The notes under the pieces: model-generated | Database searches by the model: none | Told to the model about the DNA's origin: nothing | Seen by the model: only the letters and a program-made list of their open reading frames with translations | Source: Pyrodictiaceae archaeon | GTDB taxonomy: Archaea > Thermoproteota > Thermoprotei_A > Sulfolobales > WANQ01 | Length of the DNA stretch: 64,000 bases | NCBI GenBank assembly: GCA_015521735.1 | Contig: WANQ01000043.1 | Location: 30,454-94,453 of the forward strand | Reading direction: 5' to 3' | Position numbers and translations under genes: made by a program | Part shown: positions 6,851-35,655 of the stretch, one piece after another | Layout: the number at the start of each line of letters is the position of its first letter | How positions within the stretch are numbered: the first letter of the stretch is position 1

Positions 6851-6853
6851 ATC

Positions 6854-7138: not shown

Positions 7139-7235
7139 ACCCCTTATCCCCCCACATAGTTAGCGTTAACCAGATAAAAACTTATGCAACTTTTGATATA
7201 ATCGTATAGTATTAGTAAAAGTATTGTTAGGTAAA

Positions 7236-10174: not shown

Positions 10175-10176
10175 GC

Positions 10177-11085: not shown

Positions 11086-11374
11086 AGAGAAACACCGTTA
11101 ACACTACTATTGAGACTGTAAGCAAGAAGCCTATGTATAGAGATGACATTACAAGAGACTTCTCAATAGACTTCTGTAGCGTGTTAACAATTGATGCTAG
11201 CTTCTTAGAAAACGATATTATCTTCTGCTCAGTCTTCTCCCCCAAGCTAGTTGATGCAACAAATACTGTTGCGGCAAAGCCTATTATTGAGGGCTTAAGC
11301 TTCCCTAGACTACGCCTAATCTTCTCTAACGCCTTCTCAAAGCTAAATATCGTTGATGCTCTAGCATAACTCAT
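11069..11374 (-). CDS. Small membrane protein of the hydrogenase operon (possibly a detached antiporter-subunit C-terminal helix)
   Basis: Overlaps both neighbours; amphipathic region plus a C-terminal TM helix. Confidence 0.6.
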   Translation of the reverse strand: MSYARASTIFSFEKALEKIRRSLGKLKPSIIGFAATVFVASTSLGEKTEQKIISFSKKLASIVNTLQKSIEKSLVMSSLYIGFLLTVSIVVLTVFLYATRG

Positions 11375-12912
11375 GGGTAAGCACCACCTAACCAGATCTC
11401 CTCAGTTCTAATCTTTTTCTGCGCGAGTATAAATATATAGGACATTATTAAACCAAGTAATGCAACAAAATTTATAAATAATACTAACAATCCTAAAGTA
11501 GTATACTGGGCTAACAATGGGACTACTAGCCCTAAGGCAAAGTTTACTCCAAGACCATATCCTTCAGCAATTGACAAGAGCCTATACTTTAACACACGAC
11601 TACGTATAGGCTTATAGCCTCCATAATACGTGCTTAAATACTTTAACCCATATACTAGTCCTGAAGCAGAAAGGAATACTAGTGCTACTAATGGTATAAT
11701 TGATAGTACTCCATAGTTCATTGAAGCATAGACCAAGACTATGAAGGTATAGAGTTTTGCAGCAAACCCTATTGTTGATGGAGAACCTATGAGACTTAGA
11801 ACACCAGTTATTGTTGCTAATGAGCCTTGTTGATCTATTCTTGAAAGATATCCTAGCTCATATATATCTCTGGTATTAGCGAGTATCTCAATACTACCAG
11901 CATTAATAAATAGCAAAGACTTAGCTACACCATGCGCAATCATTAATGTATACAATGCATAGAGCACACTAATACTATACCCTGTATAAATGTATATTCC
12001 AAGTAGGGACATAAGCATACCAGAATAAGCCATAGTAGAATACGATAATAATCTCTTAACATCCCGTTGAACAAGTGCTTGAGCTGAAGCATATACTACT
12101 GTTACAGCACCTAGAACCACAAGTAAGTACTCCAACAATACTATGTGGGGTAAAACAACTTGTAGAATCCTTAAAACACCGTAAATACTCATTTTCTCCA
12201 TTACACCACTAAGCATAGCTGATGCTGGCGACGGAGCTAGGGTATAAGCATCTGGTAGCCAGAAGTGTAAGGGTACTAGTGCTGCCTTAGCTATAAAGCC
12301 TATGAATAAGAGTACAGTTATTATTGGTCCAACACTTATTCCTAAACCTGATAAGTCTGTAAAGCTGGCTGTTAAGGCCTTGTCCAAGCCTATATGATAT
12401 GATGTAACTGCTAGTAAGGTGAATAACGAGAAATCTGCTGTAAGAGCACCTACTATAAGATACTGGATACCTGCTCTCCAAGACTCACGTGTACCCTCAG
12501 ATAATATTATCATGAACCCTATAAGCTCTGTTATAATCCAGAATACTACGAACTCAAGTAACATAGTAGAAGTGTATAGTAAGAGTAGTGAAGCCGCGAA
12601 TATGTCCATGGGTAGTTGTAGTGTACGTGCAATACCATAGAGTACTCTTGAGTATCCCTCCGTATGCAGTGTTACTGCTATGCCTACTAAGCCCAGCAAT
12701 AAAAGGAATGGATATGATACTTGGTCAACGATCTCAAGGTAGAATGCCGATAAAGGTATCAATACTATTATAAGCGAGTAGCCTAAAAGCCTTAGAATCC
12801 TCGATAACCTTTGCTTACTATCAACTAGGATACTACCTAATATTATTAGAGCTGACGTAATGGTTACGTATAAGTACTTGTACATCAACATGTTAGCGAC
12901 CTGGATAAGCAT
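11371..12912 (-). CDS. Antiporter-like hydrogenase membrane subunit (HyfB/NuoL-M family)
   Basis: KAALVPLHFWLPDAYTLAPSPASAMLSG and KRLLSYST. Confidence 0.9.
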   Translation of the reverse strand: MLIQVANMLMYKYLYVTITSALIILGSILVDSKQRLSRILRLLGYSLIIVLIPLSAFYLEIVDQVSYPFLLLLGLVGIAVTLHTEGYSRVLYGIARTLQLPMDIFAASLLLLYTSTMLLEFVVFWIITELIGFMIILSEGTRESWRAGIQYLIVGALTADFSLFTLLAVTSYHIGLDKALTASFTDLSGLGISVGPIITVLLFIGFIAKAALVPLHFWLPDAYTLAPSPASAMLSGVMEKMSIYGVLRILQVVLPHIVLLEYLLVVLGAVTVVYASAQALVQRDVKRLLSYSTMAYSGMLMSLLGIYIYTGYSISVLYALYTLMIAHGVAKSLLFINAGSIEILANTRDIYELGYLSRIDQQGSLATITGVLSLIGSPSTIGFAAKLYTFIVLVYASMNYGVLSIIPLVALVFLSASGLVYGLKYLSTYYGGYKPIRSRVLKYRLLSIAEGYGLGVNFALGLVVPLLAQYTTLGLLVLFINFVALLGLIMSYIFILAQKKIRTEEIWLGGAYP

Positions 12913-14365
12913 AGCCTGCTACACCCTTCAGTATTCTAAGCCTAATATTATAGTAGAATGTGTATACGAGTAATATTATTAGGAGAAGTGAGAATGCGTT
13001 AACTAGTGTTAGAGTAAACATTATCTCAGTATACGATATTAGTGGTGATATAAAACCATAGACTATGTTCATTGAAGCTAGCGCTAGTTCTATGTATTGT
13101 GCTTGGTTTTCTACAGGCTTACCTGTAACTCTACCTGCTTCCCAGTGAACTCTAAGTATTCTTACACCATAGTATAGTGATACAAGTATACTATAGCCTA
13201 TGAGGAGTAATACAGCTATTGTTAATGGACTTAAACCAGCCTCCAATACACCTATTATTGATAATAGCTTGCTCATAAAGCCTATTGTTGGTGGAATACC
13301 TATAACCGATAGTATTGAGAATAGACTTGAAAGAGAAGATACGGGTACGTATGCTACAAGACCTTGTACTTCATCTAGAATTCGTGTATGTGTGGATAAC
13401 TCTATTGTACCAGCATTAATGAATAACGATGCCTTGTATAAGCCGTGAGCATATATACTTGTAATAAATGCTAGGTAAAGATACGTACTCGCGGGATGAA
13501 GGAAGTATAGTGCTTGTATTACTGCTATTAGCCCAGTATTACCTATTGTTGAGTAAGCAAGCAGTCTCTTAACATCACGTTGGCTAAGGAGCATGAGGAA
13601 GCCGTAAACACATGTAATGAAGCCCATACCCAGTAATAGATACTTTGACCACACATCCATTAATACTATGTTGTAGAGCCTCATTAATGCATAGAAGCCT
13701 AGCTTTACTGTAACACCACTAAGCACAGCTGATGCAGGAGATGGTGCAGTAGAATGTGCATGTGGTAGCCAGAAGTGTAGGGGTACTAGTGCTACTGTAG
13801 TAGTATAGCCTATCATTAATAGAAGAACATAGTATGGGTTAACACTTATTGCCGGAAGAGACCATAAACTCGTGAGTAACGCCTTTTCTATGCCTATCTT
13901 TGAGGATAGTATAGCTAGTAATGCTAGAGCTGATACCTCAAAAGTCAATGCTTTAAGGAAGAAAAACCTATAGCCAGCTCTAAATGCTTCAACACCGCCT
14001 TCAAACGATACTAGGAGGAAGCCAATTATTTCAGACATAGTCCATAGTGCTATGAATCCTACTAGATTTGGTGCAAGAACAGTATATATCAACGATATGT
14101 TGAACAAGTCTACCAGTAATTGTAGTCTATCCTGTGAGCCATACTTTATCCTAGAGTACCATGAAGTGTAAAGTGATGAAGCTATTGATACAGGTATTAG
14201 TAAGATGAGAAACATTAAGGATACTTGGTCTACTAGACCGTATGAGACAGCTATTAGTGGAATAAGATAGACTATAAGCCTTGTAGCAACAAGACTCCAA
14301 ATACTAGGTCTACGGAAGACTAGGATTATGAGGAGAGATACGAGTAGTAAAATATATGTAATCAA
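12893..14365 (-). CDS. Antiporter-like hydrogenase membrane subunit (HyfB/NuoL-M family)
   Basis: VPLHFWLPHAHSTAPSPASAVLSG and KRLLAYST; paralog of the next gene. Confidence 0.9.
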   Translation of the reverse strand: MITYILLLVSLLIILVFRRPSIWSLVATRLIVYLIPLIAVSYGLVDQVSLMFLILLIPVSIASSLYTSWYSRIKYGSQDRLQLLVDLFNISLIYTVLAPNLVGFIALWTMSEIIGFLLVSFEGGVEAFRAGYRFFFLKALTFEVSALALLAILSSKIGIEKALLTSLWSLPAISVNPYYVLLLMIGYTTTVALVPLHFWLPHAHSTAPSPASAVLSGVTVKLGFYALMRLYNIVLMDVWSKYLLLGMGFITCVYGFLMLLSQRDVKRLLAYSTIGNTGLIAVIQALYFLHPASTYLYLAFITSIYAHGLYKASLFINAGTIELSTHTRILDEVQGLVAYVPVSSLSSLFSILSVIGIPPTIGFMSKLLSIIGVLEAGLSPLTIAVLLLIGYSILVSLYYGVRILRVHWEAGRVTGKPVENQAQYIELALASMNIVYGFISPLISYTEIMFTLTLVNAFSLLLIILLVYTFYYNIRLRILKGVAGYAYPGR

Positions 14366-14390
14366 CTATGACCCCCAATAGGAGGGTCCA

Positions 14391-14900
14391 TTAACCTAAC
14401 GTTATCATTCCCTCAAGCCTAGCTCTAACAAGTTGTTCTGCTCTACGATGCCTTATCTCGTCTGAAACCTTTCTAGGCTCACCATAGATTATTGCACGTG
14501 CAGGACACATAGCATAACATGCTGGTTCTAATCCCTGTCTCCTCAAGTCCATACATAAATCACACTTAGTGCTAACTCTTAGATCAGGGTCTAGTTCTGG
14601 TACACCAAAGGGACAAGCATATAGGCATGCCATACATCCAATACACTTCATTGGATCAACATATACTGCACCACTTTCATCTCTTCTCATAGCCCCAGTA
14701 GGGCAAACCTCTATACATGGTGCTTTACTACAATGCATACATGATAGCGGTATTTTCACTCCTATACTTGTTTCATAGATCTTTATGAACGGTTTACCAT
14801 CGTGTATGAAATCGCATACTGATTCACAGGTGCCACAGCCCATACATCTATCAAGGTCTATGTATCTTAGAAACGTTATGGGGTCTGACTGCGAGGCCAA
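14391..14900 (-). CDS. 4x[4Fe-4S] electron-transfer protein (HycB/CooF/DmsB family)
   Basis: CMGCGTCESVC, CMHCSKAPCIEVCP, CIGCMACLYACP and KCDLC...PACYAMCP. Confidence 0.93.
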   Translation of the reverse strand: MASQSDPITFLRYIDLDRCMGCGTCESVCDFIHDGKPFIKIYETSIGVKIPLSCMHCSKAPCIEVCPTGAMRRDESGAVYVDPMKCIGCMACLYACPFGVPELDPDLRVSTKCDLCMDLRRQGLEPACYAMCPARAIIYGEPRKVSDEIRHRRAEQLVRARLEGMITLG

Positions 14901-14959
14901 GAATCCTCACCTAGTGGCTATGTAGGGTTACCACGTACACTAATGTAATAACGCCTATA

Positions 14960-14972
14960 TATACTTTGCAGT
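14960..14972 (-). promoter_or_regulatory. BRE/TATA promoter of the 4Fe-4S-hydrogenase operon
   Basis: Minus strand ACTGCAAAGTATA(TATA); an identical 13-mer is at 16266-16278. Confidence 0.55.
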
Positions 14973-15098
14973 AACCTTATAACGAAACTATTAGTAGCTG
15001 TAACTTATCGTGGTTCCGGGAATAGGTTAGTGGGAACTAAAACTAGGTTAAATAGACAGTTAAATAAACATACACTAGTTTTGGACTAGACTAGTTTA

Positions 15099-16166
15099 CT
15101 AGACTAGTTTCTTGGAAGTTAGCTCTAAGTGTATACTTTTTGCAGCGTATAGTCCTTGCTTTACAGCTGAGCCTATAAGACTAGGACCTGTAACAACATC
15201 TCCTGCTGCCCATATTTTTGGATTACCTGTTCTAAATCTCTCATCAACCTGTATTCTACCTCTACGATCAGCTTTAACTCCTAAATACTCGTTCTCGAAT
15301 GGTGGGGTTGCTATTTCACCTATAGCTTCTATGATTGTGTCTGCATCTAATATGAACTCGCTACCAGGTATTGGTATGGGTCTAGGCCTACCACTTTCAT
15401 CTGGTTCTCCAAGCTTCATTTTCTGTAACTCTATTCCCTTAACCCTATTGTTTTCACGTATAATTCTTGTAGGTGATACTAGCTCCATCCACTTTACTCC
15501 ACGGTTTATTAGCTTCCTAATCTCGTAGACACCTGCAGGAGCTTGCTTAATAGTTCTACGGTAAGCCATTATGACCTCTTTAGCTCCCTGGTTTAAAGCC
15601 TCCATTGCAGCGTCTACAGCACTTAATCCACCGCCTATAACTACTACTCTATTACCGATGTGTGGTTTATGTGGAATGTAGCCCTTATTGTATATTCTTA
15701 GCTCGTAGAGGAATTCTAGAGCAGACATTACACCTGGTCCTTCTTCTCCAGGACAGTGAAGTCTACGTGAACGCCATGTACCAGTAGTAATTAGTACTGC
15801 ATCATATTTGTCAACAAGGTCTTTCAACGAAACTATTCTCTCAACAAGTTTGTCTCCTTCATCTTCTCTAGGCTTACTATCACCAAACACCTTAGTCTTT
15901 GTAATGAATTCTACGTTAAATTTATCCCTTAACTCCTCAATACCCTCTAAGATATTTTCTGGTGGTATCCTCTCCTCCGGGATAGCAAATAACATGAGTC
16001 CTCCAGGTAGTGGTTGCTTGTCGTAGACGTGGACCTCGTATCCCCGACAAGCAAGGTATCCAGCAGCACTAAGACCAGCAGGTCCACCGCCAACTATAGC
16101 TATCTTGTACCTTCCTCTTCCAGGAACAATTGATGGAGGCTCCTTACACATAAACGTAAACTTCAA
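15099..16166 (-). CDS. GltD-like FAD/NAD(P)H oxidoreductase lacking the N-terminal Fe-S domain
   Basis: IVGGGPAGL, VIGGGLSAVD, AYRR (NADPH-type) and AAGDVVTGP. Confidence 0.9.
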   Translation of the reverse strand: MKFTFMCKEPPSIVPGRGRYKIAIVGGGPAGLSAAGYLACRGYEVHVYDKQPLPGGLMLFAIPEERIPPENILEGIEELRDKFNVEFITKTKVFGDSKPREDEGDKLVERIVSLKDLVDKYDAVLITTGTWRSRRLHCPGEEGPGVMSALEFLYELRIYNKGYIPHKPHIGNRVVVIGGGLSAVDAAMEALNQGAKEVIMAYRRTIKQAPAGVYEIRKLINRGVKWMELVSPTRIIRENNRVKGIELQKMKLGEPDESGRPRPIPIPGSEFILDADTIIEAIGEIATPPFENEYLGVKADRRGRIQVDERFRTGNPKIWAAGDVVTGPSLIGSAVKQGLYAAKSIHLELTSKKLV

Positions 16167-24596: not shown

Positions 24597-25685
24597 ATGT
24601 CTCTAACAGGATTATACTACGGTAAACCCGTGGAACTAGTAAAGCTTTTCAATACATTGAAGTCTAGAGGATACAAGGTAATAGGACCTAAGGTTGTTGA
24701 AGGTGTTATAAGGTTAGAGGAACTAGGCTCCTATGAAGAATTAGCAAGCAATGTAAGTGATATACAAGAACCTGGTAGATACAGGCTTGTAGACGGAGGC
24801 AAGTATTTTAGGCATGGACCTGATTCTCCTAAGAAGATGCTCTATCCGCCAAGACTAACATTGTTTAGGATTACTAAAGACTATAGGATAGAGGTACCAG
24901 AAGTAGAAGTACCTAAGATAGCCTTCTTCGCCTTAAAGCCATGTGATTTAGCGGCAATACAGGTTATGGACCGGGTTCAAGGCTGTTTAGGTGATGCATA
25001 CTATAACTTAGTAAGAAGGAATCTCGTCATAGTAGTTGAGAACTGTGTAGAACCTGGAGGAACATGTTTTTGTGCAACTATGGGTACTGGGCCAATAGCT
25101 TCTAAGGGATTTGATGTTGCTTTTACACGTATAAGAGATGACTTAGTGGTATTTGAGGCTGGTAGTAGCCTGGGAGTAGAGCTACTTGACGAACTAGAAC
25201 TAGAGCCTCTTGACGAGAAACTCTATAGGGAGTTCATTGATGTCGTACGTAGAGCTTACTCTAAGGCTAGACCCATAGAACTACCAGATAAGTTACCAGA
25301 ACTATTAGAGCTCACCTTAGACTCAGACATGTATAAGGAGATAGCTGAAAAATGCCTAGGATGCGCTAACTGCAACATGGTTTGCCCTACATGCTTCTGC
25401 TTTGACGTAATAGACATACCATACTATGATGGATCAGCTGAGAGAGTAAGGGTATGGGATGGATGCTTCTCCTACAATTACGCTGCAGTAGCTGGAGGAC
25501 ACTATCGTCCAGATCTATGGGCTAGGTATCGCCACTGGTTTCTACACAAATTCTCGTACTGGGTTAAGCAGTTTGGAACCTATGGATGTGTTGGATGTGG
25601 TAGATGTATCACATGGTGTCCTGTAGGAATAGATGTACGTGATACTCTCCGTAGAGCTATAAAGGAGGCTGAAAAACATGGTTAA
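24597..25685 (+). CDS. hydB: Group 3b sulfhydrogenase beta subunit (Fe-S)
   Basis: KPCDL, CFCATMGTGP, CLGCANCNMVCPTCFC and GCVGCGRCITWCP. Confidence 0.93.
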   Translation: MSLTGLYYGKPVELVKLFNTLKSRGYKVIGPKVVEGVIRLEELGSYEELASNVSDIQEPGRYRLVDGGKYFRHGPDSPKKMLYPPRLTLFRITKDYRIEVPEVEVPKIAFFALKPCDLAAIQVMDRVQGCLGDAYYNLVRRNLVIVVENCVEPGGTCFCATMGTGPIASKGFDVAFTRIRDDLVVFEAGSSLGVELLDELELEPLDEKLYREFIDVVRRAYSKARPIELPDKLPELLELTLDSDMYKEIAEKCLGCANCNMVCPTCFCFDVIDIPYYDGSAERVRVWDGCFSYNYAAVAGGHYRPDLWARYRHWFLHKFSYWVKQFGTYGCVGCGRCITWCPVGIDVRDTLRRAIKEAEKHG

Positions 25686-26514
25686 ACTTGAATACAAGCT
25701 CATACCTAAGATAGCTGTTGTAGAAGATGTTAGAGAGGAAACACCCAACGTAAGAACATTTTATTTAAGAGTAGATGATTTAGGCCAAGAACCACTACCA
25801 GGGCAATTCAATGAACTCTATATTCCTGGTGGTGGCGAGGTACCAATATCTGTTAGCGATATAGTTGAAGTGAACGGTAGGAAGCTTATAGCCCATACTG
25901 TTAGGTTTATTGGAAGTGTTACCTGGATGTTTAGTAGGCTAGAGAAGGGTTCACGTATAGGTATAAGAGGACCCTACGGTAAGGGCTGGCCTATTGAAAG
26001 GCTTAGAGGTAGGGATATACTATTAGTTGCAGGTGGCTTAGGCTTAGCTCCTCTTAGACCAGTTATACGTGAAGTAGAGAGGAACCGTGGCCTATATGGT
26101 AGACTCATAATACTGTATGGTGCACGTACACCAAGAGATCTCCTATACCGTTACGAATATCATCGATACGAGGATATACCTAATACAGAGCTATTAGTAA
26201 CAGTTGATAAAGCTACTAGTTCATGGAGAGGCCATGTAGGAGTTGTAACTAAGCTTATACCGCTAGTAGAGCTAGACGTTGAGAATACTATAGCTCTCGT
26301 ATGTGGACCAGAAATAATGATGAGGTTCACGGTTAAGGAGTTGAAGAAGAGGGGGTTCAAGGACAATCAAATCTACCTATCACTTGAAAGGAGAATGAAG
26401 TGTGGTGTAGGCTTATGTGGCCACTGTCAAATGGGACCCTACTTCGTATGTAAGCATGGACCTGTTTTCCCCTACTGGTTTATCAAGAAGTACTTCTGGG
26501 TGGATCAAATATGA
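25678..26514 (+). CDS. hydG: Group 3b sulfhydrogenase gamma subunit (FAD/NAD(P), 2Fe-2S)
   Basis: PGQF...GEVPIS, RGPYGKG, AGGLGLAP and MKCGVGLCGHC...VCKHGP. Confidence 0.93.
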   Translation: MVKLEYKLIPKIAVVEDVREETPNVRTFYLRVDDLGQEPLPGQFNELYIPGGGEVPISVSDIVEVNGRKLIAHTVRFIGSVTWMFSRLEKGSRIGIRGPYGKGWPIERLRGRDILLVAGGLGLAPLRPVIREVERNRGLYGRLIILYGARTPRDLLYRYEYHRYEDIPNTELLVTVDKATSSWRGHVGVVTKLIPLVELDVENTIALVCGPEIMMRFTVKELKKRGFKDNQIYLSLERRMKCGVGLCGHCQMGPYFVCKHGPVFPYWFIKKYFWVDQI

Positions 26515-27284
26515 AGAAGCTCCGTATAGCTGTTTACAAGTTTGCTAGTTGTGATGGATGCCAGCTACAGCTACTTAACCTTGAAGACGAGTTACTGGAT
26601 CTTGTAGAACACGTAGAGTTTGCAATGTTCTATGAGGCTAGTAGTGATGTTAAGCCAGGACCCTACGATGTAGCATTCATTGAAGGAGCAGTATCAACTC
26701 CTGAAGAAGAAGAAATCGTTAGGAAGGCTAGAGAGGAGTCTAAGATAGTTGTAGCTATTGGTGCATGTGCTACTGCTGGAGGAATACAGGCTCTTAGAAA
26801 CTGGGCTAATGTTGAAGAATACAAGAAGTACGTCTACCCTAACCCCGAATGGATTAAAGCCTTAGAGAAAGCCCACCCCATTTCAGATTACATTAAGGTA
26901 GACTACGAGATACGTGGATGCCCAGTAAGTAAGGAGCAGTTATCATTCTTTATAAGACAGTTACTCATAGGCAAGAAGCCTACACTACCAGTTGATAGCG
27001 TATGCATGGAGTGTAAGATGAAGGGTAATGTATGCTTAATGGTTACAAAGGGAATACCATGCCTAGGGCCCGTAACCATGGCTGGATGCGGTGCTATATG
27101 CCCAAGTTACGGACGTGGATGCTATGGATGCTATGGGCCCATGATTGACCCTAAACCCAGAGCATTAGCACAAGCATTCGTAAAGATGATGGGGTTGAGT
27201 AAACGGGATGTAGCTTTATTGTTCAAATCATTTACTGGTTGGAGTAAACCATTCCGTGAGGTGGTAGATGAGTATGGCAAGTGA
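26511..27284 (+). CDS. hydD: Group 3b [NiFe]-hydrogenase small (delta) subunit
   Basis: SCDGC, GACATAGG, RGCP and VCMEC...CLGPVTMAGCGAICP...CYGCYG. Confidence 0.94.
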   Translation: MKKLRIAVYKFASCDGCQLQLLNLEDELLDLVEHVEFAMFYEASSDVKPGPYDVAFIEGAVSTPEEEEIVRKAREESKIVVAIGACATAGGIQALRNWANVEEYKKYVYPNPEWIKALEKAHPISDYIKVDYEIRGCPVSKEQLSFFIRQLLIGKKPTLPVDSVCMECKMKGNVCLMVTKGIPCLGPVTMAGCGAICPSYGRGCYGCYGPMIDPKPRALAQAFVKMMGLSKRDVALLFKSFTGWSKPFREVVDEYGK

Positions 27285-28578
27285 AGTAGAAAGAACATTT
27301 AAAGTAGACTACCTTGCTAGAGTTGAAGGAGAAGGTAGAGTCTACGTTAAGATGAGAAATGGTAGAATAGAGAGAGTTGAAGTAGGAATATTTGAGCCTC
27401 CTAGATTCTTTGAAGCATTCCTTAGAGGTAGAAAATACCTTGAGGTACCAGATATTACAGCTAGAATCTGTGGTATATGCCCAATAGCATATATCATGAG
27501 CTCTAGCCGTGCATTCGAGAAATTATTTGGCATAGAGTTAACTGAAGAACTCAAAACGCTTAGAAGAATAATCTACCTAGGCGAATGGATAGAAAGCCAC
27601 ATGCTACACATAGCAATGCTCCATGCACCAGACTTCCTAGGATGCCATAGCATAATAGAGATAGCAAGAAAGCATCCACAATTCGCAAAAGACTCTCTAC
27701 TAGTCAAGGCATGGGGTAATAAGGTCATAGAAGTTATAGGTGGTAGATCAGTACACCCAGTTTCATGCCGTGTTGGGGGATTCCACCGAATAATAAAACG
27801 TGAACAACTACTAGGACTACTAAAGAAAATATATGATGTAAAAAATGCTGCTAAGAGAATACTTGAATTCGTACTACAACTACCAATACCAGATTTCAAA
27901 CGAGACATAGAGTTCATGTCACTTAAAGGAGATAAAGAGTACCCAATACTTGAAGGTAGAGTTGTATCCAATAAGGGCATAGATGTACCAGAAGACGAGT
28001 TCGAGAAAGTAGTAGAAGTACAACAAGTACCATACTCTAATGCACTAAGATACAGGGTTAAGGGTAGAGGAACATATGTTACCGGGCCTATAGCAAGATT
28101 CAATCTAAACTACAAGCTACTACTACCAGAGGTAAGAGAAGTAGTAGAAGCCTATGGATATAAGGCACCATTAACAAATACTTATCAAAGCATTATAGCA
28201 AGAGCAGCAGAAGTATACCAAGCAGTCCTAGAACTAGAAGAACTAATATTATCATATCGTGAACCTAGTCAACCATACATAGAAGGCGAAGTAAGAGAGG
28301 GGTGGAGTGCAGCTATAACGGAGGCACCAAGGGGAATGCTTTACCATGCCTATAGAGTAGATAGTGAAGGATACGTAGTAGATGCTAACATAATACCTCC
28401 TACAGCACAAAACCTAGCAGCAATGGAGGAGGACATAAAAGCACAGGAAGAAGTACTGTGGCGTGAACCCTATGAGAAAGCAAAACTACTAGTACAGCAA
28501 ACAATAAGAAACTATGATCCATGCATATCATGCTCCGTACATACGGTAAAAGTAATAATAGAGAAACAACATTCTTAG
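27268..28578 (+). CDS. hydA: Group 3b [NiFe]-hydrogenase large (alpha) subunit
   Basis: ARVEGEG, RICGICP, EAPRG and YDPCISCSVH plus extension. Confidence 0.95.
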   Translation: MSMASEVERTFKVDYLARVEGEGRVYVKMRNGRIERVEVGIFEPPRFFEAFLRGRKYLEVPDITARICGICPIAYIMSSSRAFEKLFGIELTEELKTLRRIIYLGEWIESHMLHIAMLHAPDFLGCHSIIEIARKHPQFAKDSLLVKAWGNKVIEVIGGRSVHPVSCRVGGFHRIIKREQLLGLLKKIYDVKNAAKRILEFVLQLPIPDFKRDIEFMSLKGDKEYPILEGRVVSNKGIDVPEDEFEKVVEVQQVPYSNALRYRVKGRGTYVTGPIARFNLNYKLLLPEVREVVEAYGYKAPLTNTYQSIIARAAEVYQAVLELEELILSYREPSQPYIEGEVREGWSAAITEAPRGMLYHAYRVDSEGYVVDANIIPPTAQNLAAMEEDIKAQEEVLWREPYEKAKLLVQQTIRNYDPCISCSVHTVKVIIEKQHS

Positions 28579-28596: not shown

Positions 28597-30018
28597 TTAC
28601 TTTCTCAAATATTTTCCTTCAACTATTTTTAGCGTCCTATACCTACACTCCACACATACCTCAAATGGTGACCTTGAGTAGGGTTGTCCACCACCCATTA
28701 TACATCCATTAGGGCATATGTATAATACTATTGTTCCAGTCTTTATCAATCCTCTCTTAACAGCCTCTAGTATACCCTTTACTTCATAAGGTCCTACAGC
28801 TTTAACATACCCATATGTTTTAGGCATTATTTCTCCATCAGGTTTACTAGGTCTTAGGTCTTTTAGATCCATCTTTTTCAGCATTACTTGTAATTCTCTT
28901 GTAGTTATAACGTGTTCTCCATGTAGTTTTCTTGCAACACATTGCGTTATTAGTACACTATGATATCCTAGTCTTGGTGTTGGTGGACGTACAAGGTATT
29001 TCCTTAGTTCAGGGTAGAACTGGTTTACATACTTGTATTCTGCTTCGCTTACTGGCACTATGTTTAACTCGTGTGTGAGCTGTATGTCTGCTAAAGGCGA
29101 CCATATTATTATCCTAGTAAATCCTAGTTCTCTAAGCGCGGTAATAACCTTACCAGGATCTACTTCTTCTGCTTCTGCTAGTGCTGCTAATGCTTCTGGC
29201 TCTATGTATGCTATTGGATTATGTTTTGAGAGGAGCCCTTGAACGTTTTCTATATCATTTCTGTAAACTAGGGCTCCTACAGGACAGTAAGCTGTACATA
29301 AACCACATAGTATGCATGTAGTGTTCTCAAATGGCTCATAGAATGGTGTTGCAACTGCTATGTCTATTCCACGGTTAACGAATCCTAAAGCATTTACACC
29401 TAGACTACTACATACTCCAACGCATCTACCACAAATAATACATTTATCTGCATGGAGCCTTAGTATCTTACCCCTAATATCACGTAAGTATTCACGACAG
29501 AACTCAAATCTCCTCTCACCTTGCTTAAACCATGATCCTCCCACTATCTTGGCTATGAGTTCTACTAACTCCCACTTGTTAATTGGGCATCCTCTTAGCC
29601 AGTAATCAACTCTAACATATCTTGAAATAGGTTCTCCTTCAATGATTCCTTCATGCTTCTCTTCGCTTCCATAGACTTTCTTTACTCCATTAATGCTTCT
29701 TCCTTTCATAAGCCCTGGTATTCCTCCTAGGAGACTACATGTACCTAGGGCTACTAGTATCTTCGCCTTTCTCCTAATCTCCTTTAGCTTCTCAGCATCC
29801 TCTATGGAAGCTACTGCTCCTTCAACGAATACTATATCGTATTCCTCTCTTTCACTAGTATAGCCTAAAAGAGGTTCATAGGCTATTTCTATACCGTATT
29901 TCTCCATTAACTCGATTAGCTTCTCACCTAGATTAACTATTTCATGCCTACATCCCTCGCATCCTGCTAGAGAGTATATTCCTACAATAATTTTGTCTGC
30001 CATGGATTTATACCTCAA
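28597..30018 (-). CDS. Chimera: [NiFe] small-subunit proximal-cluster domain + 2x[4Fe-4S] + degenerate [FeFe]-hydrogenase H-cluster domain
   Basis: GCEGC/EGAV/GTC/RGCP; then CIICGRCVGVC...NRG...CILCGLCTAYCPVGAL; then ALRELGF, QFYPEL, QCVARK, VITTREL and CPNGCIMGGGQP. Likely start is the ATG at 30003. Confidence 0.88.
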   Translation of the reverse strand: MRYKSMADKIIVGIYSLAGCEGCRHEIVNLGEKLIELMEKYGIEIAYEPLLGYTSEREEYDIVFVEGAVASIEDAEKLKEIRRKAKILVALGTCSLLGGIPGLMKGRSINGVKKVYGSEEKHEGIIEGEPISRYVRVDYWLRGCPINKWELVELIAKIVGGSWFKQGERRFEFCREYLRDIRGKILRLHADKCIICGRCVGVCSSLGVNALGFVNRGIDIAVATPFYEPFENTTCILCGLCTAYCPVGALVYRNDIENVQGLLSKHNPIAYIEPEALAALAEAEEVDPGKVITALRELGFTRIIIWSPLADIQLTHELNIVPVSEAEYKYVNQFYPELRKYLVRPPTPRLGYHSVLITQCVARKLHGEHVITTRELQVMLKKMDLKDLRPSKPDGEIMPKTYGYVKAVGPYEVKGILEAVKRGLIKTGTIVLYICPNGCIMGGGQPYSRSPFEVCVECRYRTLKIVEGKYLRK

Positions 30019-30019: not shown

Positions 30020-31291
30020 TTATTGTTTAACTACAACATGGACAGCACATGGAAGACATGGATCGTATGCTCTAACAAGCATTGACAAATACTTTTTAGC
30101 TTCAACTACGTCTAATTCTCCTTCAACTATCTTCTTACCCAAGGTCATAGCTGAGTGTTCTATGTGGAGGGCATTCATTGCTGTAGGCGTTATTATATTA
30201 GCGTATACTACTCTACCCTCACTATCAACCCTATAATGATGTATGAGTAGTCCTCTAGGTGCTTCAAGTACTCCTACTCCTTCACCACTACGTATGGTGT
30301 ATTCTGTTCTTAGCCTAAGATCCCTATCTTTCAGTTCATCTAGCTTCTCCTTAACATCCATTATAGTTGCTAGTATTTCTAGTGCCTTAGCCTTAATGTT
30401 GGCGTAGGGATTGTTTAGTTCCTTTACAATAGATGACACGTAGTCCTCTAATCCTACTAGTCTCTCACCATACTCCAACACTCTTGCACGTGAGCCAACA
30501 TAGAATACTCTACCATTATATCTGTAAACCTTGGAGTTTGAGTAGTCTACTACCTCCTCTGAGATATACTTAGGGTAGTCTACGGCCCTGAACTTCTCCC
30601 CAGTAGACGATAGAATATAGTCGCCTATGGAGAGATAGCCTATAGGTGATTCAGATACAAGGTATACTGGTGAAGGATCTACTAGTTCTGGTAGTTCAAG
30701 CCTAGTTACATGGTCTACTACTTCTCTTGCAAGCTTCTCTGCCTCACCTAGTATCCTCACAGCTTTCTCTACTTTATCCTTTGAAGGCTTCTTTGTAAAT
30801 CCTCCAATTCTATAAGTATTCGGGTTTACTATCCTACCTGCTAATAGCTCAACTACTTGTAAGCATAAGTTGTTTAGCTTAAACCCTACTTTAATTAAGT
30901 CTGGATTCCTTGATAGAAGCTCTGATAAAGTCCTAGCATTATAGTAGTCTGGTAGTGCTAGGAAGAATAAGTGTACTACATTGTTTTGTGCTACCTGTAT
31001 CTTGTTCATGGATTCTTTTAGCAGTATTATATCATCTGGTAGCTCTACTCCCAGCGCGTTTTCTATTGCTGTAATCGATGCTAAGAAATGTGCTATACTA
31101 CATGCTCCACATATTCTTGACGCTATTATTGGTGCTTCATCTACTTTTCTACCCTCTATTACAGCTTCTATAAGCCTCATATCATGTACTACACGGAATT
31201 TTGCGTCAACACTACCATTCCTTAAGCTTAGCCTTAACTCTAGGTGTCCGAATACTTTATCTATTCTCTCGCTTAGCTCGAGATAGCTCAC
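30020..31291 (-). CDS. Group 3-type [NiFe]-hydrogenase large subunit (divergent)
   Basis: SRICGACSIAH, EAPRGLLIHHY and YDPCLPCAVH followed by VVVKQ. Confidence 0.92.
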   Translation of the reverse strand: MSYLELSERIDKVFGHLELRLSLRNGSVDAKFRVVHDMRLIEAVIEGRKVDEAPIIASRICGACSIAHFLASITAIENALGVELPDDIILLKESMNKIQVAQNNVVHLFFLALPDYYNARTLSELLSRNPDLIKVGFKLNNLCLQVVELLAGRIVNPNTYRIGGFTKKPSKDKVEKAVRILGEAEKLAREVVDHVTRLELPELVDPSPVYLVSESPIGYLSIGDYILSSTGEKFRAVDYPKYISEEVVDYSNSKVYRYNGRVFYVGSRARVLEYGERLVGLEDYVSSIVKELNNPYANIKAKALEILATIMDVKEKLDELKDRDLRLRTEYTIRSGEGVGVLEAPRGLLIHHYRVDSEGRVVYANIITPTAMNALHIEHSAMTLGKKIVEGELDVVEAKKYLSMLVRAYDPCLPCAVHVVVKQ

Positions 31292-31959
31292 TTCTTTTCA
31301 CCTCCATTATAGGTTTCTAGTAATATGTTGTAGATCTTGTCTAGGCTTGGGTGATTATTCCAGAATAACTTCATCTTAGAGAATACTTCTTCTAATGGTA
31401 TTTTATGCTCCTTGTAGAGCCTAGCCGCCTCAACTAGTACGTCTCTACGTGTTATAGGGCCACGACATCCTATACATATAGTTCCTTCTCTAGTACAGGG
31501 GCTACCACAACCAGCTATAGTTATTGGGCCTAGGCATGGTTCTCCTCTTACTAGTAAACACTCGTTTCCGTGGAGAGGGCATTCAGCACATACTGGTATG
31601 CCTTCTACACCATATTCTCTTGCTAAGTCTAGTAGTTGGCAGAATCCGCCTTTCCTTGGACAAGACTGGCATTTAATTTTATGGGATGCTAGTATTAGTT
31701 CTAGTATTACTCTACGGTTACGTCTAACTCTCTCTGTATTAGTGTAGACTCTTAGCCCCTCTGATACAGGGTAGGCGCAAGCTGGTACTAGTCTACCGTT
31801 ACCTAGTTCTACAATACATATTCTACATGATGCTTCACGGTATATTCCCTTGAAGAAGCATAGTGTTGGAACACTATATCCAGCCTTAATTACAGCGTCA
31901 ATTATATATGATCCCTCCCCTACTTCTACTTCTTTATCATTAACGTAGACCTTAACCAT
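31288..31959 (-). CDS. Chimera: HydA/NuoG N-terminal [2Fe-2S] and His-ligated [4Fe-4S] domains + [NiFe] small-subunit C-terminal Fe-S domain
   Basis: VPTLC...SCRICIVE...PAC and HKIKCQSC...FCQL, then VCAEC...CLGPITIAGCGSPC...CIGCRGP. Confidence 0.88.
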   Translation of the reverse strand: MVKVYVNDKEVEVGEGSYIIDAVIKAGYSVPTLCFFKGIYREASCRICIVELGNGRLVPACAYPVSEGLRVYTNTERVRRNRRVILELILASHKIKCQSCPRKGGFCQLLDLAREYGVEGIPVCAECPLHGNECLLVRGEPCLGPITIAGCGSPCTREGTICIGCRGPITRRDVLVEAARLYKEHKIPLEEVFSKMKLFWNNHPSLDKIYNILLETYNGGEKK

Positions 31960-31968: not shown

Positions 31969-33924
31969 TCACCTCTTCTCAACTGCTCCTACAGGACAAA
32001 CAATATAGCATTGACCACAGTGAATACACTTTGACTTATCAATTACATGGGGCTTACCTAGTTCACCTGAAATAGCTTTAGATGGACAATTTCTTGCACA
32101 AGTACCACATCCAGTACATTTGTCAGGGTTAATCCAGTACTCTACTAGCTTAGTACATACTTTTGCAGGACAACGCTTACTACGAACATGTGCTAGGTAC
32201 TCGTCCTTGAAGTATCGTAGCGTTGACAATACTGGGTTAGGGGCTGTTCCACCGAGAGCACATAAGCTTGAACTCCTAATTACATTTCCTAGCTCTTCTA
32301 GTACTTCTAGATCCTCTTCACTTCCTTCACCATTAGTTATCTTTTCCAGTATATCGTAGAGTATCTTCATCCCTATGCGGCATGGGAAACACTTGCCACA
32401 GGATTCTGCTACAGTAAAGCTTGTAAAGAACTTAGCTACATCAACCATACAGCTATGGTCATCTATTACTACTATTCCACCAGAACCCATTATTGCTCCA
32501 GCTTTCTGCAATGTCTCGTAGTCTATTGGTGTTGATAGTAGGCTTGCAGGTACACATCCACCACTAGGCCCACCTATCTGTACTGCTTTGATTTTCCTAC
32601 CTTCTGGTGGTCCTCCAGCAATCTCTACTACTAGCTTCTCTATTGTTGTCCCTACTGGTACTTCGTAGGCACCAGTACGTTTAACTGAACCCGTTACACA
32701 GAACATCTTAGTACCCTTAGTCTTCTCTGTACCATACTTGGCGAACTTCTCCCATCCCTCAGCCATTATCGTTGCTACATGAGCTAGTGTCTCAACATTA
32801 TTGATTATGGTAGGTTTACCCCATAGTCCACGTGTTGCTGGATAAGGTGGTCTTTGCCTAGGCCTAGTCCTCCCCTCTATTGCTGCGATTAACGCTGTTT
32901 CTTCTCCACATACAAAGGCTCCTGCACTAAGGATTACTTCTACGTCAAAGCTAAAGCCTCTTCCAAGAATATTGTCTCCTAGTAGACCATACTTTCTTGC
33001 CTGCTCAACAGCTTTTGATAAGCGCTCAGCCATTAATGGTTTTTCTGCTCTAACGAATATGAAACCCTTACTCGCACCTATGGCGTAGGCTGCTATTATC
33101 ATTCCCTCAAGTACTCGGTGGGGATCTGATTCTGCTAGCAATCTATTCATGAATGCTCCAGGGTCTCCTTCATCAGCATTCATTATAATGTACTTGACGT
33201 CTCCTGGTTGCTCACGAGCAATCTTCCATTTCAGCCACGTTGGGAATCCTGCTCCTCCACGTCCACGTAGACCCGACTTCCTTATCTCCTCTATTACTTC
33301 CTCAGGCCTCATGTTTAGTGCTCGGTCTAGTCCACGGTATCCTCCAAGAGCTATGTACTCCTCTATTGACTCTGGATCAACTATTCCACAGTTCCTTGAA
33401 ACCCATCTTACCTGATTCCTCCATGGCTCAAGCTCGTCTAGTAGTGGCACCTTGTCTTCTCCTTTCGCATTACCAGTACGATTCCTTAATGCAAAAGCAC
33501 TTGATACATCTCCTTCAAGGTATTCTTTTATAATTCTTGGCACATCACTTGGCTTAACATTAGCGTAAATCGCTGAAGGCATACCCTTCTTAGACAGCTC
33601 TATCCATGGATCTATGTAGCACATCCCCATACATCCAGTTCTATGTATATCAGCTAGTATTCCACGTGACTTAACCTCTTTAACAACAGCTTCGTAGACT
33701 TCGTGTGCTCCAGCAGCAATAGTACAGCTAGCAAGTGGTACATTTATCTTAAACCCATGTCTACCATATCTTATCTCTTTAAGTCTTCTACTCCTCCTGA
33801 CACGGCATTCAACGTCTTCGTGACATAACGGTCCACTTAGTCTACACCTAATATAGTGGCGACAAGGATACTCAGGGCTATGCCAACATCTATTACAACA
33901 CTTATCCATTAATGTCCAGGTCAA
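31969..33924 (-). CDS. HydB/NuoF-type FMN/NADH subunit with Cys-rich and thioredoxin-like N-terminal domains and C-terminal 2x[4Fe-4S]
   Basis: GLRGRGGAGFPT, NADEGDPGAFM, CGEETAL, GGPSGG, ESCGKCFPCR, CPAKVC and two CxxCxxCxxxCP motifs. Confidence 0.94.
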   Translation of the reverse strand: MTWTLMDKCCNRCWHSPEYPCRHYIRCRLSGPLCHEDVECRVRRSRRLKEIRYGRHGFKINVPLASCTIAAGAHEVYEAVVKEVKSRGILADIHRTGCMGMCYIDPWIELSKKGMPSAIYANVKPSDVPRIIKEYLEGDVSSAFALRNRTGNAKGEDKVPLLDELEPWRNQVRWVSRNCGIVDPESIEEYIALGGYRGLDRALNMRPEEVIEEIRKSGLRGRGGAGFPTWLKWKIAREQPGDVKYIIMNADEGDPGAFMNRLLAESDPHRVLEGMIIAAYAIGASKGFIFVRAEKPLMAERLSKAVEQARKYGLLGDNILGRGFSFDVEVILSAGAFVCGEETALIAAIEGRTRPRQRPPYPATRGLWGKPTIINNVETLAHVATIMAEGWEKFAKYGTEKTKGTKMFCVTGSVKRTGAYEVPVGTTIEKLVVEIAGGPPEGRKIKAVQIGGPSGGCVPASLLSTPIDYETLQKAGAIMGSGGIVVIDDHSCMVDVAKFFTSFTVAESCGKCFPCRIGMKILYDILEKITNGEGSEEDLEVLEELGNVIRSSSLCALGGTAPNPVLSTLRYFKDEYLAHVRSKRCPAKVCTKLVEYWINPDKCTGCGTCARNCPSKAISGELGKPHVIDKSKCIHCGQCYIVCPVGAVEKR

Positions 33925-34451
33925 CTACCACCACCTTTAATCTTCTTCAATGCTAGTGAACGATATTTTGCAACAATACGTCTAGCATCACGTATGGTTA
34001 CATGCCCGTGAAGGTACCGCTCCTTACCATCCCTACTAATAACCATGACTACCGGTGCTAGACTACATGCACCAAAACATCTCGCCTTCTCTACACTAAC
34101 CGTTCCATCCTTTGCAGTATTCTCGTATTTCCCTAAACCCAAAAACCTCTTCATAGCCTCATAATTGTCTAGATTACCTTTAAGATGACAAGCCGTGCCC
34201 ATGCAGACTAGTATTATATAATACCCAGGTGGCTCAAGCTTAAACTGGTGATAGAATGTTGCAACATTAAGTACCTCACTTAACGGAATACCTGTTAACT
34301 TTGCAAGCTCCTCCAATGCTCTTCTAGGCAAATAGCCATAACGACTTTGTATCTCCTGTAACATACGCATAAGATACCTTCTCTCACCACGATACCTAGC
34401 AACTATACTAGATACCACGTTGACTACTGTTTGATTAACCAACGCATTCAC
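33921..34451 (-). CDS. HydC/NuoE-type [2Fe-2S] subunit
   Basis: YGYLP, VATFYHQF, VCMGTACHLKG and RCFGACSLAP. Confidence 0.94.
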   Translation of the reverse strand: MNALVNQTVVNVVSSIVARYRGERRYLMRMLQEIQSRYGYLPRRALEELAKLTGIPLSEVLNVATFYHQFKLEPPGYYIILVCMGTACHLKGNLDNYEAMKRFLGLGKYENTAKDGTVSVEKARCFGACSLAPVVMVISRDGKERYLHGHVTIRDARRIVAKYRSLALKKIKGGGS

Positions 34452-34617: not shown

Positions 34618-35655
34618 TTACTCTAGAAGTGGGAAGAATCGGCAACGACATGCTTTATCTCTTATACACCTACTAACAGTTATACGGGCTATGCTCATAG
34701 AACTTCTTATTACTGGTAGTATTTCCTCAGCTATCATAGTATTATGTTTTCCTAGTTCTCCTAAAAGCTCGTTAATATACTCCATTACGATTTCCTCTTT
34801 ACCTAATACCGTTAACGCCTTATTTATATCGTTACTTATATACGATGATATGGATGCTTCATATAGTTCTTGCAAGTAGCCTATGATTTTGTCTATTTCT
34901 TCTCCTAGTTCAACTCTATCCCTGCTAGGAGTACTAGCTATCATTCTAGCTAGTCTTGTAATAGAATCTGTTATCTCCTTGAGATCCCTTAAGACTATTA
35001 TGGAATCTATTATATCCTGTATATTCTTACCACGTACTACGTTTTTCTTAGAGGCTCTTAGGCCTAGATAGTATATTCCTTCAGCTTCCTCTTCTAAGTC
35101 TTTTAGCTCATCTAGTATTATTGTATTATTACTACGTACTAGTTTACGTGTTATACTGAATACTTGGTTAAGTGTAGTGGAGAACTTTTCTATAATGGGT
35201 TCAACGTTAACTGGAGCTTCCATGAACGTTAACTTATAGGAGTAGCCTTTAAGTCCGGGTAATACCACCATTCCGGGAAGCTTTTTCCTTAGTATCCTTA
35301 ATGATTCTCCTAGTACCTCTTGCTTGCCCTTCACGTGTATCTCGGATACACCTTCAATGTATGCTCCAATGACTTCTTCTACTAATTGCTTAGTACTTCT
35401 ACGAGTAGCATCCAATGCTATTCTTAGACCTAAAGGTTCTTCTGACACCTTCTCTCTTGGAGGGCGAACTATTATTGTATCTTCATGTTTTTCTAGTTCT
35501 ACTAGGTCTCCTACCTCTATACCTAGTTCACGACACCATTTCTTAGGTATGGTTATAGCATATGATGCTTCTCCTACTCTAAGTACTTTCCTTCGCTCCT
35601 TCTCTAAAGCCAATACACATAACACCCTACAATTACAAATTGTTGTAGTAGGCAA
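34618..35655 (-). CDS. AbrB-domain/PhoU-family transcriptional regulator
   Basis: ERRKVLRVGEASYAITIPKKW...GIEVGD AbrB domain, IGAYIEG and helical PhoU repeats; the start is probably some codons downstream. Confidence 0.85.
   Translation of the reverse strand: MPTTTICNCRVLCVLALEKERRKVLRVGEASYAITIPKKWCRELGIEVGDLVELEKHEDTIIVRPPREKVSEEPLGLRIALDATRRSTKQLVEEVIGAYIEGVSEIHVKGKQEVLGESLRILRKKLPGMVVLPGLKGYSYKLTFMEAPVNVEPIIEKFSTTLNQVFSITRKLVRSNNTIILDELKDLEEEAEGIYYLGLRASKKNVVRGKNIQDIIDSIIVLRDLKEITDSITRLARMIASTPSRDRVELGEEIDKIIGYLQELYEASISSYISNDINKALTVLGKEEIVMEYINELLGELGKHNTMIAEEILPVIRSSMSIARITVSRCIRDKACRCRFFPLLE

Follow-up and report, generated by a model that had tools for sequence, protein, structure and literature searches.

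Does this archaeon encode a hydrogenase that bifurcates electrons between NAD(H) and ferredoxin, and what is the short Cys/His-rich module at the front of its flavoprotein? Both questions are raised by a 64,000-nucleotide stretch of a Pyrodictiaceae archaeon genome (assembly GCA_015521735.1, contig WANQ01000043.1, positions 30,454 to 94,453 of the forward strand), here called the window, in which hydB lies on the minus strand at 31969..33924 (all positions are counted within the window, and features are on the minus strand unless stated otherwise). From the sequence of the window, an earlier note had read the encoded protein as a HydABC-type bifurcating subunit with a candidate extra metal site at its N-terminus. 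We consider it probable that HydB is the NAD(H)/ferredoxin flavoprotein of a cytoplasmic bifurcating or confurcating hydrogenase and that its N-terminal prefix is a metal-binding mini-domain.

HydB within the family of bifurcating flavoproteins

The strings that had been quoted from HydB (GDPGAFM, KMFCVTG, GGPSG, the Cys/His sites and EKP) were all recovered in the minus-strand translation of 31969-33924, well beyond what chance would give, and the plus-strand frame contains many stops. The TTG start of hydB (33924) shares the letters TTGA with the stop of hydC. Since orthologues have ATG at this position and the residues upstream of the first internal Met are conserved, the form of 651 amino acids was accepted; a copy in the database, annotated with 646 amino acids, lacks 5 of these residues. 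HydB is the sole PF01512 gene in a genome scored 100% complete.

For the family definition, we took the entries IPR011538, IPR019554, IPR019575 and IPR017896 to correspond to Pfam PF01512, PF10531, PF10589 and Fer4. HydB matches PF01512 (6.8e-47), PF10589 (1.7e-32), Fer4 as PF00037 (3.3e-16) and the SLBB domain PF10531 (1.3e-08). The BfuB protein of bifurcation-type (Bfu) enzymes was defined by Schut et al. (2022) as carrying IPR011538, IPR019554, IPR019575 and IPR017896 in one protein (PMC9304861), and this domain set is complete in HydB (PF01512, PF10531, PF10589 and PF00037). A BfuC (NuoE-like, IPR002023) is present next to it as hydC, and the features of BfuA are split between two genes, hydD carrying Fer2_4 and hyhS-hydA the 4Fe-4S dicluster. 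Three sequence features have been published as discriminators of bifurcating from NADH-only B subunits, namely AFM, a Phe in place of the flavin-site Tyr of Nqo1, and GGPSG (PMC7311640, PMC8880783, PMC12018979). All three were found in HydB: AFM at residues 257-259 (33148-33156) within GDPGAFM (253-259), invariant in 19/19 orthologues; F337, the Phe of GAFVCGEE (32914-32916); and GGPSG at residues 451-455 (32560-32574). The FMN (flavin mononucleotide)/NAD(H) domain that matches PF01512 spans residues 214-384 (32773..33285) and includes E342, and the SLBB domain spans residues 407-456 (32557..32706). KMFCVTG, at residues 406-412 where the SLBB domain begins, had also been proposed to mark bifurcation; the discriminators in the literature that we found do not include it, and solved bifurcating enzymes read K-V/I-F-A-L-S/T-G there, so that of the markers originally proposed AFM and GGPSG stand and KMFCVTG falls away.

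The predicted cluster ligands follow the same pattern. The [4Fe-4S] B1 (N3-type) domain (residues 495-579, 32188..32442; PF10589) has Cys 509, 512, 515 and 555, all unchanged in 19/19 orthologues. Two CxxCxxCxxxC motifs (Cys 603/606/609/613 and 633/636/639/643) lie in the C-terminal 2x[4Fe-4S] ferredoxin domain (B3/B4; residues 597-648, 31981..32136), which was recognised by Fer4 family matches. At the other end, the thioredoxin-like domain with the B5 site (residues 59-140, 33505..33750) has Cys 67, 98 and 102, again invariant in 19/19, with SCTIAAGA at residue 66 and GCMGMC at 97, and from residue 59-66 on it can be aligned to the N-terminal domains of the solved Bfu B subunits. The B2 or 'hinge' site consists of H579, C585 and C590 (32155..32190; H579 followed after five residues by CPAKVC at 585-590) together with the upstream C492 (32449-32451), and residue-by-residue alignment with 7t2r_B and 9n5u_B placed C492, H579, C585 and C590 on C438, H525, C531 and C536 of A. 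mobile HydB. These four residues are invariant in 19/19 orthologues. Just 8 of 1558 BfuB sequences were reported to lack the His of this site, whereas non-bifurcating homologues do not have it, and the A. mobile ligand set is H525, C438, C531, C536 and C476 (PMC9304861). The fifth of these, C476, corresponds to Thr530 in HydB and is T, V or I in 19/19 orthologues; Thr is also found in T. sibiricus NfnB, in which B2 holds Zn, as it likewise does in [FeFe] enzymes (PMC12018979). By this analogy, the B2 site of HydB most likely holds Zn with three Cys and one His ligand.

The nearest relatives of HydB point in the same direction. In a search of the PDB by sequence, bifurcating enzymes took the first nine places, each with its B subunit (608-740 bits, residues ~59-650), and the best non-bifurcating match, Nqo1 of T. 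thermophilus, reached 404 bits over residues 178-585 only. An AlphaFold2 (AF2) model of full-length HydB, built on a 27-row alignment, had a pLDDT (predicted local distance difference test) of 91.1 and a pTM (predicted template modelling score) of 0.89. Its 14 best Foldseek matches were all entries titled as electron-bifurcating enzymes (TM-score TMt 0.85-0.95), including NfnABC of C. saccharolyticus and T. sibiricus, HydABC of T. kivui, T. maritima and A. woodii, StnABC of S. ovata, and a tungsten aldehyde oxidoreductase, with FdsB and complex I NuoF ranking below. The adjacent HydC reached 106 bits on the HoxE model NF005747 versus a cut-off of 224 and was also under the cut-off of the NuoE equivalog. 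Comparison with the solved HydB proteins of T. maritima and A. mobile had been proposed in the earlier note; both B subunits match, and the motif and cluster ligands of A. mobile are aligned. Domain set, published motifs, B2 His and nearest solved relatives together support the assignment of HydB as a bifurcation-type (BfuB) flavoprotein B subunit on the level of sequence comparison, in agreement with the initial proposal of a bifurcating type.

The CCxxC prefix and Lys295

Ahead of the thioredoxin-like domain, residues 4-52 (33769..33915) match NCBIfam NF040902 (NuoF_pre_CCxxC, in full 'CCxxC motif-containing NuoF prefix domain') at 4.4e-21 with 74.5 bits versus a cut-off of 45 (78.6 bits on the genome). 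The run of residues 9-40 begins CCNRCWH and contains the ligand candidates C9, C10, C13, H15, C21, C27, C34, H35 and C40, which are all invariant in 19/19 archaeal orthologues. Across a more diverse alignment of 58 rows, C10, C13, C21, C34 and H35 are invariant and C9, H15, P20, C27, G31, P32 and C40 are conserved in at least 90%, and thus all seven Cys and His35 are at least 90% conserved. The extra Cys/His-rich module noticed at the N-terminus of HydB is therefore a real conserved domain, found in 19/19 orthologues and over the cut-off of NF040902; the conserved Cys and His residues are consistent with its candidacy as a metal site, and it had already been catalogued as NF040902. We consider that it is probably a metal-binding mini-domain with an unmatched fold.

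Modelled alone with AF2, the prefix had a mean pLDDT of 84.2 and formed a long, ligand-rich loop followed by helices at 24-30 and 38-53; it keeps the same shape within the full-length HydB model, with pLDDT of 82-91. A profile search of the PDB with the prefix gave chance-level rows only (haptoglobin 0.0011, cytochrome c3 0.35), Foldseek with its model gave no match at E 0.001 or better (best 9.5), VIA-align against 48,161 chains had a best Z of 2.5, and the ESM Atlas returned nothing at 0.9 or above and no informative family. The literature search found no paper, structure or assay on NF040902 or the CCxxC prefix. When the prefix, as a chain of its own, was folded together with the HydB core (59-651) and HydC, the median score was 0.57 (runs 0.56, 0.57 and 0.73); the best control scored 0.00, replacing the HydB core gave 0.00, and the verdict was 'weak support'. 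The docking mark is reached by 116/157 solved complexes and 2/215 mismatched pairs, and at scores of 0.60 or below by 18/157 solved complexes and both mismatches. The runs agreed in at least 96% of contacts, with partner pLDDT of at least 72. Because of these docking runs and of its position between HydC and HydB in fused bacterial proteins, the prefix may pack on HydB near the mobile B5/C1 region.

To survey its distribution, a profile of ten archaeal prefix copies was searched against 1.84 billion representative proteins, which gave matches in 69 clusters at E 0.001 or better and in 18 at 1e-10 or better; a word-index search with residues 1-58 returned 5 near-identical proteins only. In the inspected cases the prefix always belongs to a NuoF-like protein and immediately precedes its thioredoxin-like domain, and in four bacterial proteins (P0039, P0058, P0061 and P0069) it stands between a fused HydC and HydB. 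One of these, P0069 (824 amino acids, from a cluster of 116 members of which one is named from a metagenome-assembled genome, MAG, of Polyangia), has its CCxxC module internal, with the NuoE-like part before it and the N-terminal domain of HydB after it. Named members are proteins from MAGs of Polyangia, Planctomycetota and Coatesbacteria. NF040902 was over its cut-off in 17/201 sampled genomes of the order of the window, in 3/13 families, and in 20/401 sampled genomes of the phylum (~5% of Thermoproteota), versus 0/14 control genomes. When one genome per species was scanned, 21 prefix-bearing loci emerged, labelled Desulfurococcales, Sulfolobales, Thermofilaceae, Thermoproteales, Thermoprotei or Bathyarchaeota. 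Outside the archaeal clade, the full-length prefix-bearing proteins P0059 and P0069 have the bifurcating pattern and the ferredoxin domain, and P0037, P0068, P0070 and P0074 have the non-bifurcating pattern (S-x-K or similar, Tyr where readable, no GGPSG) and no ferredoxin domain. Two further proteins, P0024 and P0030 (601 and 594 amino acids, with one of the clusters named from a Coatesbacteria MAG), have the prefix and the thioredoxin-like start, and their remainder gave no Pfam match at 1e-5. As FMN-site motifs are unrecognisable in them, the prefix may also occur on proteins that are no longer flavoproteins.

The prefix is also missing from some copies of the operon. The fused hyhS-hydA gene was found in 27/201 genomes of the order, versus 17 with the prefix, and in five extra genomes that were examined (L039-L043) the same five genes are present with a HydB of 606-611 amino acids, 68-70% identical and without the prefix; these proteins begin inside the last turn of the second helix of the prefix. 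A quick maximum-likelihood tree was calculated from residue 60 on with 26 HydB rows (the window and 18 further loci, 5 prefix-less and 2 bacterial prefix-bearing proteins; three truncated loci were left out). In it the prefix-less proteins form one clade (Shimodaira-Hasegawa-like approximate likelihood ratio test, SH-aLRT, 100) nested among prefix-bearing ones, with support of 97 for the sister group, so that one loss of the prefix is the simplest history. Since the prefix also occurs on NuoF homologues with the non-bifurcating pattern, it would not be needed for bifurcation, and by its distribution among these sequences it is a dispensable accessory that is not tied to bifurcation.

The second peculiarity of HydB is Lys295 of AEKP (residues 293-296; Lys at 33040-33042), which takes the place of the Tyr of a widespread A/G-E-Y-P motif, as had been pointed out from the reading EKP for EYP. 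Every aligned archaeal HydB from an operon of this type has Lys at this position, with the prefix (19/19) or without it (5/5), and bacterial proteins that carry the prefix mostly have Tyr; among the aligned orthologues Lys295 is a clade-wide marker. Two explanations of this residue were rejected. Lys295 is not a substitute for the flavin-site Tyr of complex I, as that Tyr aligns with F337, which is the position of the published Tyr/Phe switch (PMC8880783, PMC7311640). Neither is it linked to the prefix, as the 5 orthologues without a prefix share it and bacterial prefix-bearing proteins usually have Tyr.

The partners of HydB and the rival readings

HydB was encoded in a five-gene operon in the order hydC, hydB, hydD, hyhL and hyhS-hydA on the minus strand. 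hydC (33921..34451, 176 amino acids; PF01257 2.1e-39) encodes the BfuC/NuoE-like subunit for the [2Fe-2S] cluster C1, with Cys candidates at 83, 88, 125 and 129. hydD (31288..31959, 223 amino acids) has Fer2_4 and NADH-G_4Fe-4S_3 domains; its first ~120 residues are HydA/NuoG-like ([2Fe-2S] and His-ligated [4Fe-4S]) and are fused to the C-terminal half of a sulfhydrogenase-type group-3 [NiFe] small subunit, as seen in its matches to profile positions 1-121 of FeFe_hydrog_A6 and 164-258 of sulfhydrogenase delta, and to 7q4v_A (7-127) and 9nez_A (161-260) in the PDB. hyhL (30020..31291, 423 amino acids; PF00374 1.4e-32) encodes a group-3 [NiFe] large subunit with the Ni-binding motifs RICGACSIAH at residue 59 and DPCLPCAVH at 410, and its best NCBIfam matches are ShyA/HydA-type, all under their cut-offs. 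The hyhS-hydA fusion (28597..30018, 473 amino acids; Oxidored_q6 7.3e-24, Fe_hyd_lg_C 3.2e-08) combines the N-terminal half of a [NiFe] small subunit with the proximal cluster, a 2x[4Fe-4S] part and a shortened [FeFe] H-domain. The five-gene order is complete in 11/21 prefix-bearing loci, and 8 more are cut by contig ends and concordant; in two Bathyarchaeota loci (L029 and L033), hydD is followed directly by hyhS-hydA, with hyhL absent between them or within the available DNA, and L033 is also fragmented into several short frames. The [NiFe] small subunit is thus encoded in halves that flank hyhL, the N-terminal half heading hyhS-hydA and the C-terminal half (the medial/distal cluster region) ending hydD, as compared with the intact small subunit of the adjoining hydrogenase operon. 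Each half is fused to the complementary HydA/NuoG-like part, as though two genes had swapped their 3' parts.

Instead of the HydABC type that had initially been assumed, the operon has five genes, among them those for a group-3 [NiFe] large subunit and for a [NiFe] small subunit fused to HydA. It corresponds to the hybrid hydrogenase of Greening et al. (2024), which comprises a HyhS-HydA fusion, HyhL, HydB, HydC and the conduit HydD, was found in 21 genomes including the class Thermoproteia, and was predicted to bifurcate or confurcate from AlphaFold models (PMC11216029). The hybrid architecture is present in the window, with the small-subunit/[FeFe] HydA fusion contiguous with hyhL, hydB, hydC and hydD; the Cys ligands of an H-cluster are not complete. 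In HyhS-HydA, Oxidored_q6 covers residues 20-157 and Fe_hyd_lg_C residues 370-443, the latter covering profile positions 151-245 only, and the H-domain is ~100 residues shorter than in solved HydA. At the L1 position (TSCCPGW), the window and 9 orthologues read VP-x-S-x-AE-Y/H with no Cys (10/10, an alignment that left out three further loci), and the L1 Cys is also absent in 21/21 clade members aligned with two canonical-type HydA sequences, which read TSCSPGW there. C360, C435 and C439 are kept, which is three of the four [4Fe-4S]H cysteines. A C-terminal CxxC of HyhS-HydA was seen in some members only. HydE, HydF and HydG were searched for in the genome scored 100% complete and none was over its cut-off, which is common in archaea (PMC11216029). 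Because the L1 Cys is missing and HydE, HydF and HydG were not found, the fused H-domain is probably an H-cluster-less electron conduit and the enzyme of this clade [NiFe]-only.

In the mechanism that we propose, the [NiFe] site of HyhL would split H2 (or make it), and electrons would pass through small-subunit clusters divided between HyhS-HydA and HydD, and then through HydA/NuoG-type clusters, to the B1 [4Fe-4S] cluster and FMN. At the FMN-B1-C1 'flavobicluster', one electron pair would be given to NAD+ at the flavin, and single low-potential electrons would travel through C1 (HydC) and B3/B4 to ferredoxin; in the reverse reaction, NADH and reduced ferredoxin would be disposed of as H2. The B2 hinge would most likely be a Zn site, and the prefix would be an accessory metal mini-domain docked on the HydB core by B5/C1, tuning or extending that end, and more likely a site for an Fe-S cluster than for Zn alone. 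What the sequences show is the domain set, the motifs and ligands, the operon, the relatives, the distribution and the loss of the prefix in a sister lineage; bifurcation itself, the direction of electron flow, the metals at B2 and in the prefix, and the place where the prefix docks are inferred.

A different reading of the flavoprotein, to which we give very little credence, is that HydB is a plain non-bifurcating NAD(P)H diaphorase of the HoxF/NuoF kind that passes electrons from [NiFe] to NAD(P)+ only, its ferredoxin domains being relics. NuoF models do match strongly, with 457.4 bits on the complex I NuoF equivalog TIGR01959, but this is under the cut-off of 558.65. The authors of the A. 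mobile structure considered that the B5 cluster and one branch of HydA might be relics (PMC8880783) and the discriminating motifs are just correlative (PMC7311640), but HydB has the three motifs, the His of B2 and the 2x[4Fe-4S] domain at the C-terminus, with the tested positions invariant in 19/19, and bifurcating B subunits are ahead by 200-340 bits, cover ~190 more residues and come out in the same order by fold. Somewhat similar in its improbability is a dual-catalyst hybrid, in which an active H-cluster on HyhS-HydA and the [NiFe] site both feed the HydBC core; we think it quite unlikely. The gene order and fusion match the publication, in which a Thermoplasmata fusion made H2 after artificial maturation and the fused domain is described as a true [FeFe] domain, with conserved ligands in the modelled enzyme (PMC11216029), and in the window Fe_hyd_lg_C is over its cut-off with the motif ICPNGCIMGGGQP intact, but the missing L1 Cys, the three remaining [4Fe-4S]H cysteines, the ~100 absent H-domain residues and the lack of HydE/F/G over cut-off, usual as the last is in archaea, argue for a [NiFe]-only bifurcating enzyme.

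The prefix could also bind only structural Zn, as one or two ions that stabilise or position the N-terminus with no electron transfer, and this we regard as a real if minority possibility. With 8-9 Cys/His ligands within 32 residues, it would have enough for two tetrahedral sites, the active T. sibiricus NfnB carries Zn at both B2 and B5 and B2 of the [FeFe] enzymes is likewise a Zn site (PMC12018979), and the prefix is lost where the whole operon is kept and also occurs on non-bifurcating NuoF homologues. On the other side, the host protein is otherwise full of Fe-S clusters and the prefix lies by the redox-active C1/B5 sites in fused bacterial proteins, which is not decisive. The single CxxC pair with an adjacent CC is unusual for simple zinc ribbons, and this too is not decisive. 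The most far-reaching alternative, which we hold to be doubtful, is that the prefix is a previously unrecognised Fe-S or mixed Fe-S/Zn mini-domain with its own fold, forming an extra redox centre beside B5/C1, with Lys295 altering the partition of electrons. If this is true, the prefix would be an extra entry or exit point for electrons, or a redox-sensing switch that gates the conformational cycle, and together with Lys295 it would mean that the archaeal hydrogenase partitions electrons unlike every solved Bfu enzyme.

Several observations weigh against our preferred reading of a [NiFe]-driven bifurcating enzyme with a metal-binding prefix. All 21 related loci of the one-genome-per-species scan are metagenome bins, the literature that we found gives no activity data and no demonstrated bifurcation for this enzyme type in any archaeon, and the mechanistic role of the motifs was called unknown by the authors who described them as correlates (PMC7311640). 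The path from the [NiFe] site differs from that in the solved A. mobile enzyme, with HydA and HydS cut and re-joined, and Lys295 replaces the Tyr of all three aligned solved Bfu B subunits. Some bacterial copies of the prefix have N, D or E in place of H15, the docking prediction reached no more than 'weak support' and gave no contact positions, and the HydB tree is a quick search rooted on two long bacterial branches only. Cys-rich sites of this protein family, moreover, have proved to hold Zn (PMC12018979).

Surrounding genes and comparison with known systems

A 345-residue protein with an AbrB/SpoVT-type N-terminus (PF04014 2.4e-11) and a weak PhoU-like match (0.0019) is encoded at 34618..35655 on the minus strand and is a candidate regulator of the operon; its homologues are beside the operon in 9/21 prefix-bearing and 4/5 prefix-less loci, often divergent. 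On the plus strand, a four-gene [NiFe] operon of group 3b (sulfhydrogenase-type, ShyBCDA/HydBGDA-like) at 24597-28575 converges on the hybrid operon, with ~20 bp between the stops. Further away, 2837-16166 on the minus strand encodes an Mbh/Mbx-like membrane complex with Mrp-antiporter-type and NuoB/C-D/H/I-like subunits and a [NiFe]-large-subunit-like protein, followed by a DmsB-like 4Fe-4S protein and a GltD/SudA-like flavoprotein. The window thus contains three hydrogenase-type systems, and the genome has 5 [NiFe] large-subunit-like genes.

HydB is the sole NuoF-type flavoprotein of a genome in which it lies near a group 3b hydrogenase and a membrane-bound hydrogenase-like complex. In Bfu enzymes a single FMN with adjacent clusters bifurcates, and the role of the B5 end has been disputed: one [FeFe] enzyme cannot do without it, in the [NiFe] enzyme it may be a relic, and in the archaeal Nfn it is filled with Zn (PMC12018979, PMC8880783). 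This clade represents a natural experiment, as it has the same operon with and without a Cys7His module at the B5 end. In addition, a clade that is probably [NiFe]-only bears on how far the claim of two hydrogenases in one complex extends. The operon type (PMC11216029) and the prefix model NF040902 are already known. New, as far as our searches reached, are the prefix as a rare autonomous and probably metal-binding domain with an unmatched fold, its occurrence on both NuoF motif classes and its loss in a sister lineage, together with the missing H-cluster Cys and the Lys295 that extend across the clade.

The archaeal hybrid hydrogenase (group F [FeFe] / group 3f [NiFe]) has the same five genes as the window and a NuoG-like conduit with four clusters (PMC11216029). 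The earlier note was not aware of bifurcation of this type having been shown in Desulfurococcales; as a prediction it is already in the literature, as that paper predicts bifurcation and lists Thermoproteia. The literature that we found describes no bifurcating NiFe enzyme in Desulfurococcales and no assayed complex of this archaeal type. The modelled Thermoplasmatota HydB has a glutamate-synthase-type domain, whereas HydB of the window has 2x[4Fe-4S] at its end and, at its start, the CCxxC prefix, of which the main text of the paper says nothing (PMC11216029); compared with the published hybrid enzyme, the clade of the window also lacks one H-cluster Cys. NF040902 itself is a sequence model only, which residues 4-52 match. 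The [FeFe] HydABC enzymes of T. maritima, A. woodii and T. kivui (PDB 7P5H, 7Q4V and 8A6T) share the BfuBC core, with B subunits matching at 1e-192 to 1e-200 and Zn at B2, but have a true [FeFe] HydA and neither a [NiFe] module nor the prefix, so that the enzyme of the window resembles them at the BC core only. T. sibiricus NfnABC (PDB 9N5U/9N5V) provides the best-scoring solved B subunit (2.5e-221, 740 bits; TMt 0.91-0.92), has Thr at the fifth B2 position as in the window, and is the only archaeal Bfu enzyme characterised in the literature that we found; it uses NADPH as third substrate through a different A subunit, has no hydrogenase module or prefix, and has Tyr instead of Lys295 (PMC12018979).

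A functional parallel is NiFe-HydABCSL of A. mobile (PDB 7T2R/7T30), to which HydB matches at 7.2e-208 over residues 66-650 with motifs and cluster ligands aligned, and which shares an H-cluster-less HydA-like subunit, a group-3 [NiFe] large subunit and HydC (PMC8880783). Its HydB has no prefix, Tyr instead of Lys295 and C476 instead of Thr530. The A. mobile enzyme has five separate subunits, with one HydA of 692 amino acids and a separate HydS of 179 amino acids, whereas in the window HydA and the three-cluster-type small subunit are each halved and cross-fused into hydD and hyhS-hydA. By analogy with this system, we think that the enzymes of this clade work like NiFe-HydABCSL, with the HydA part serving as an H-cluster-less conduit.

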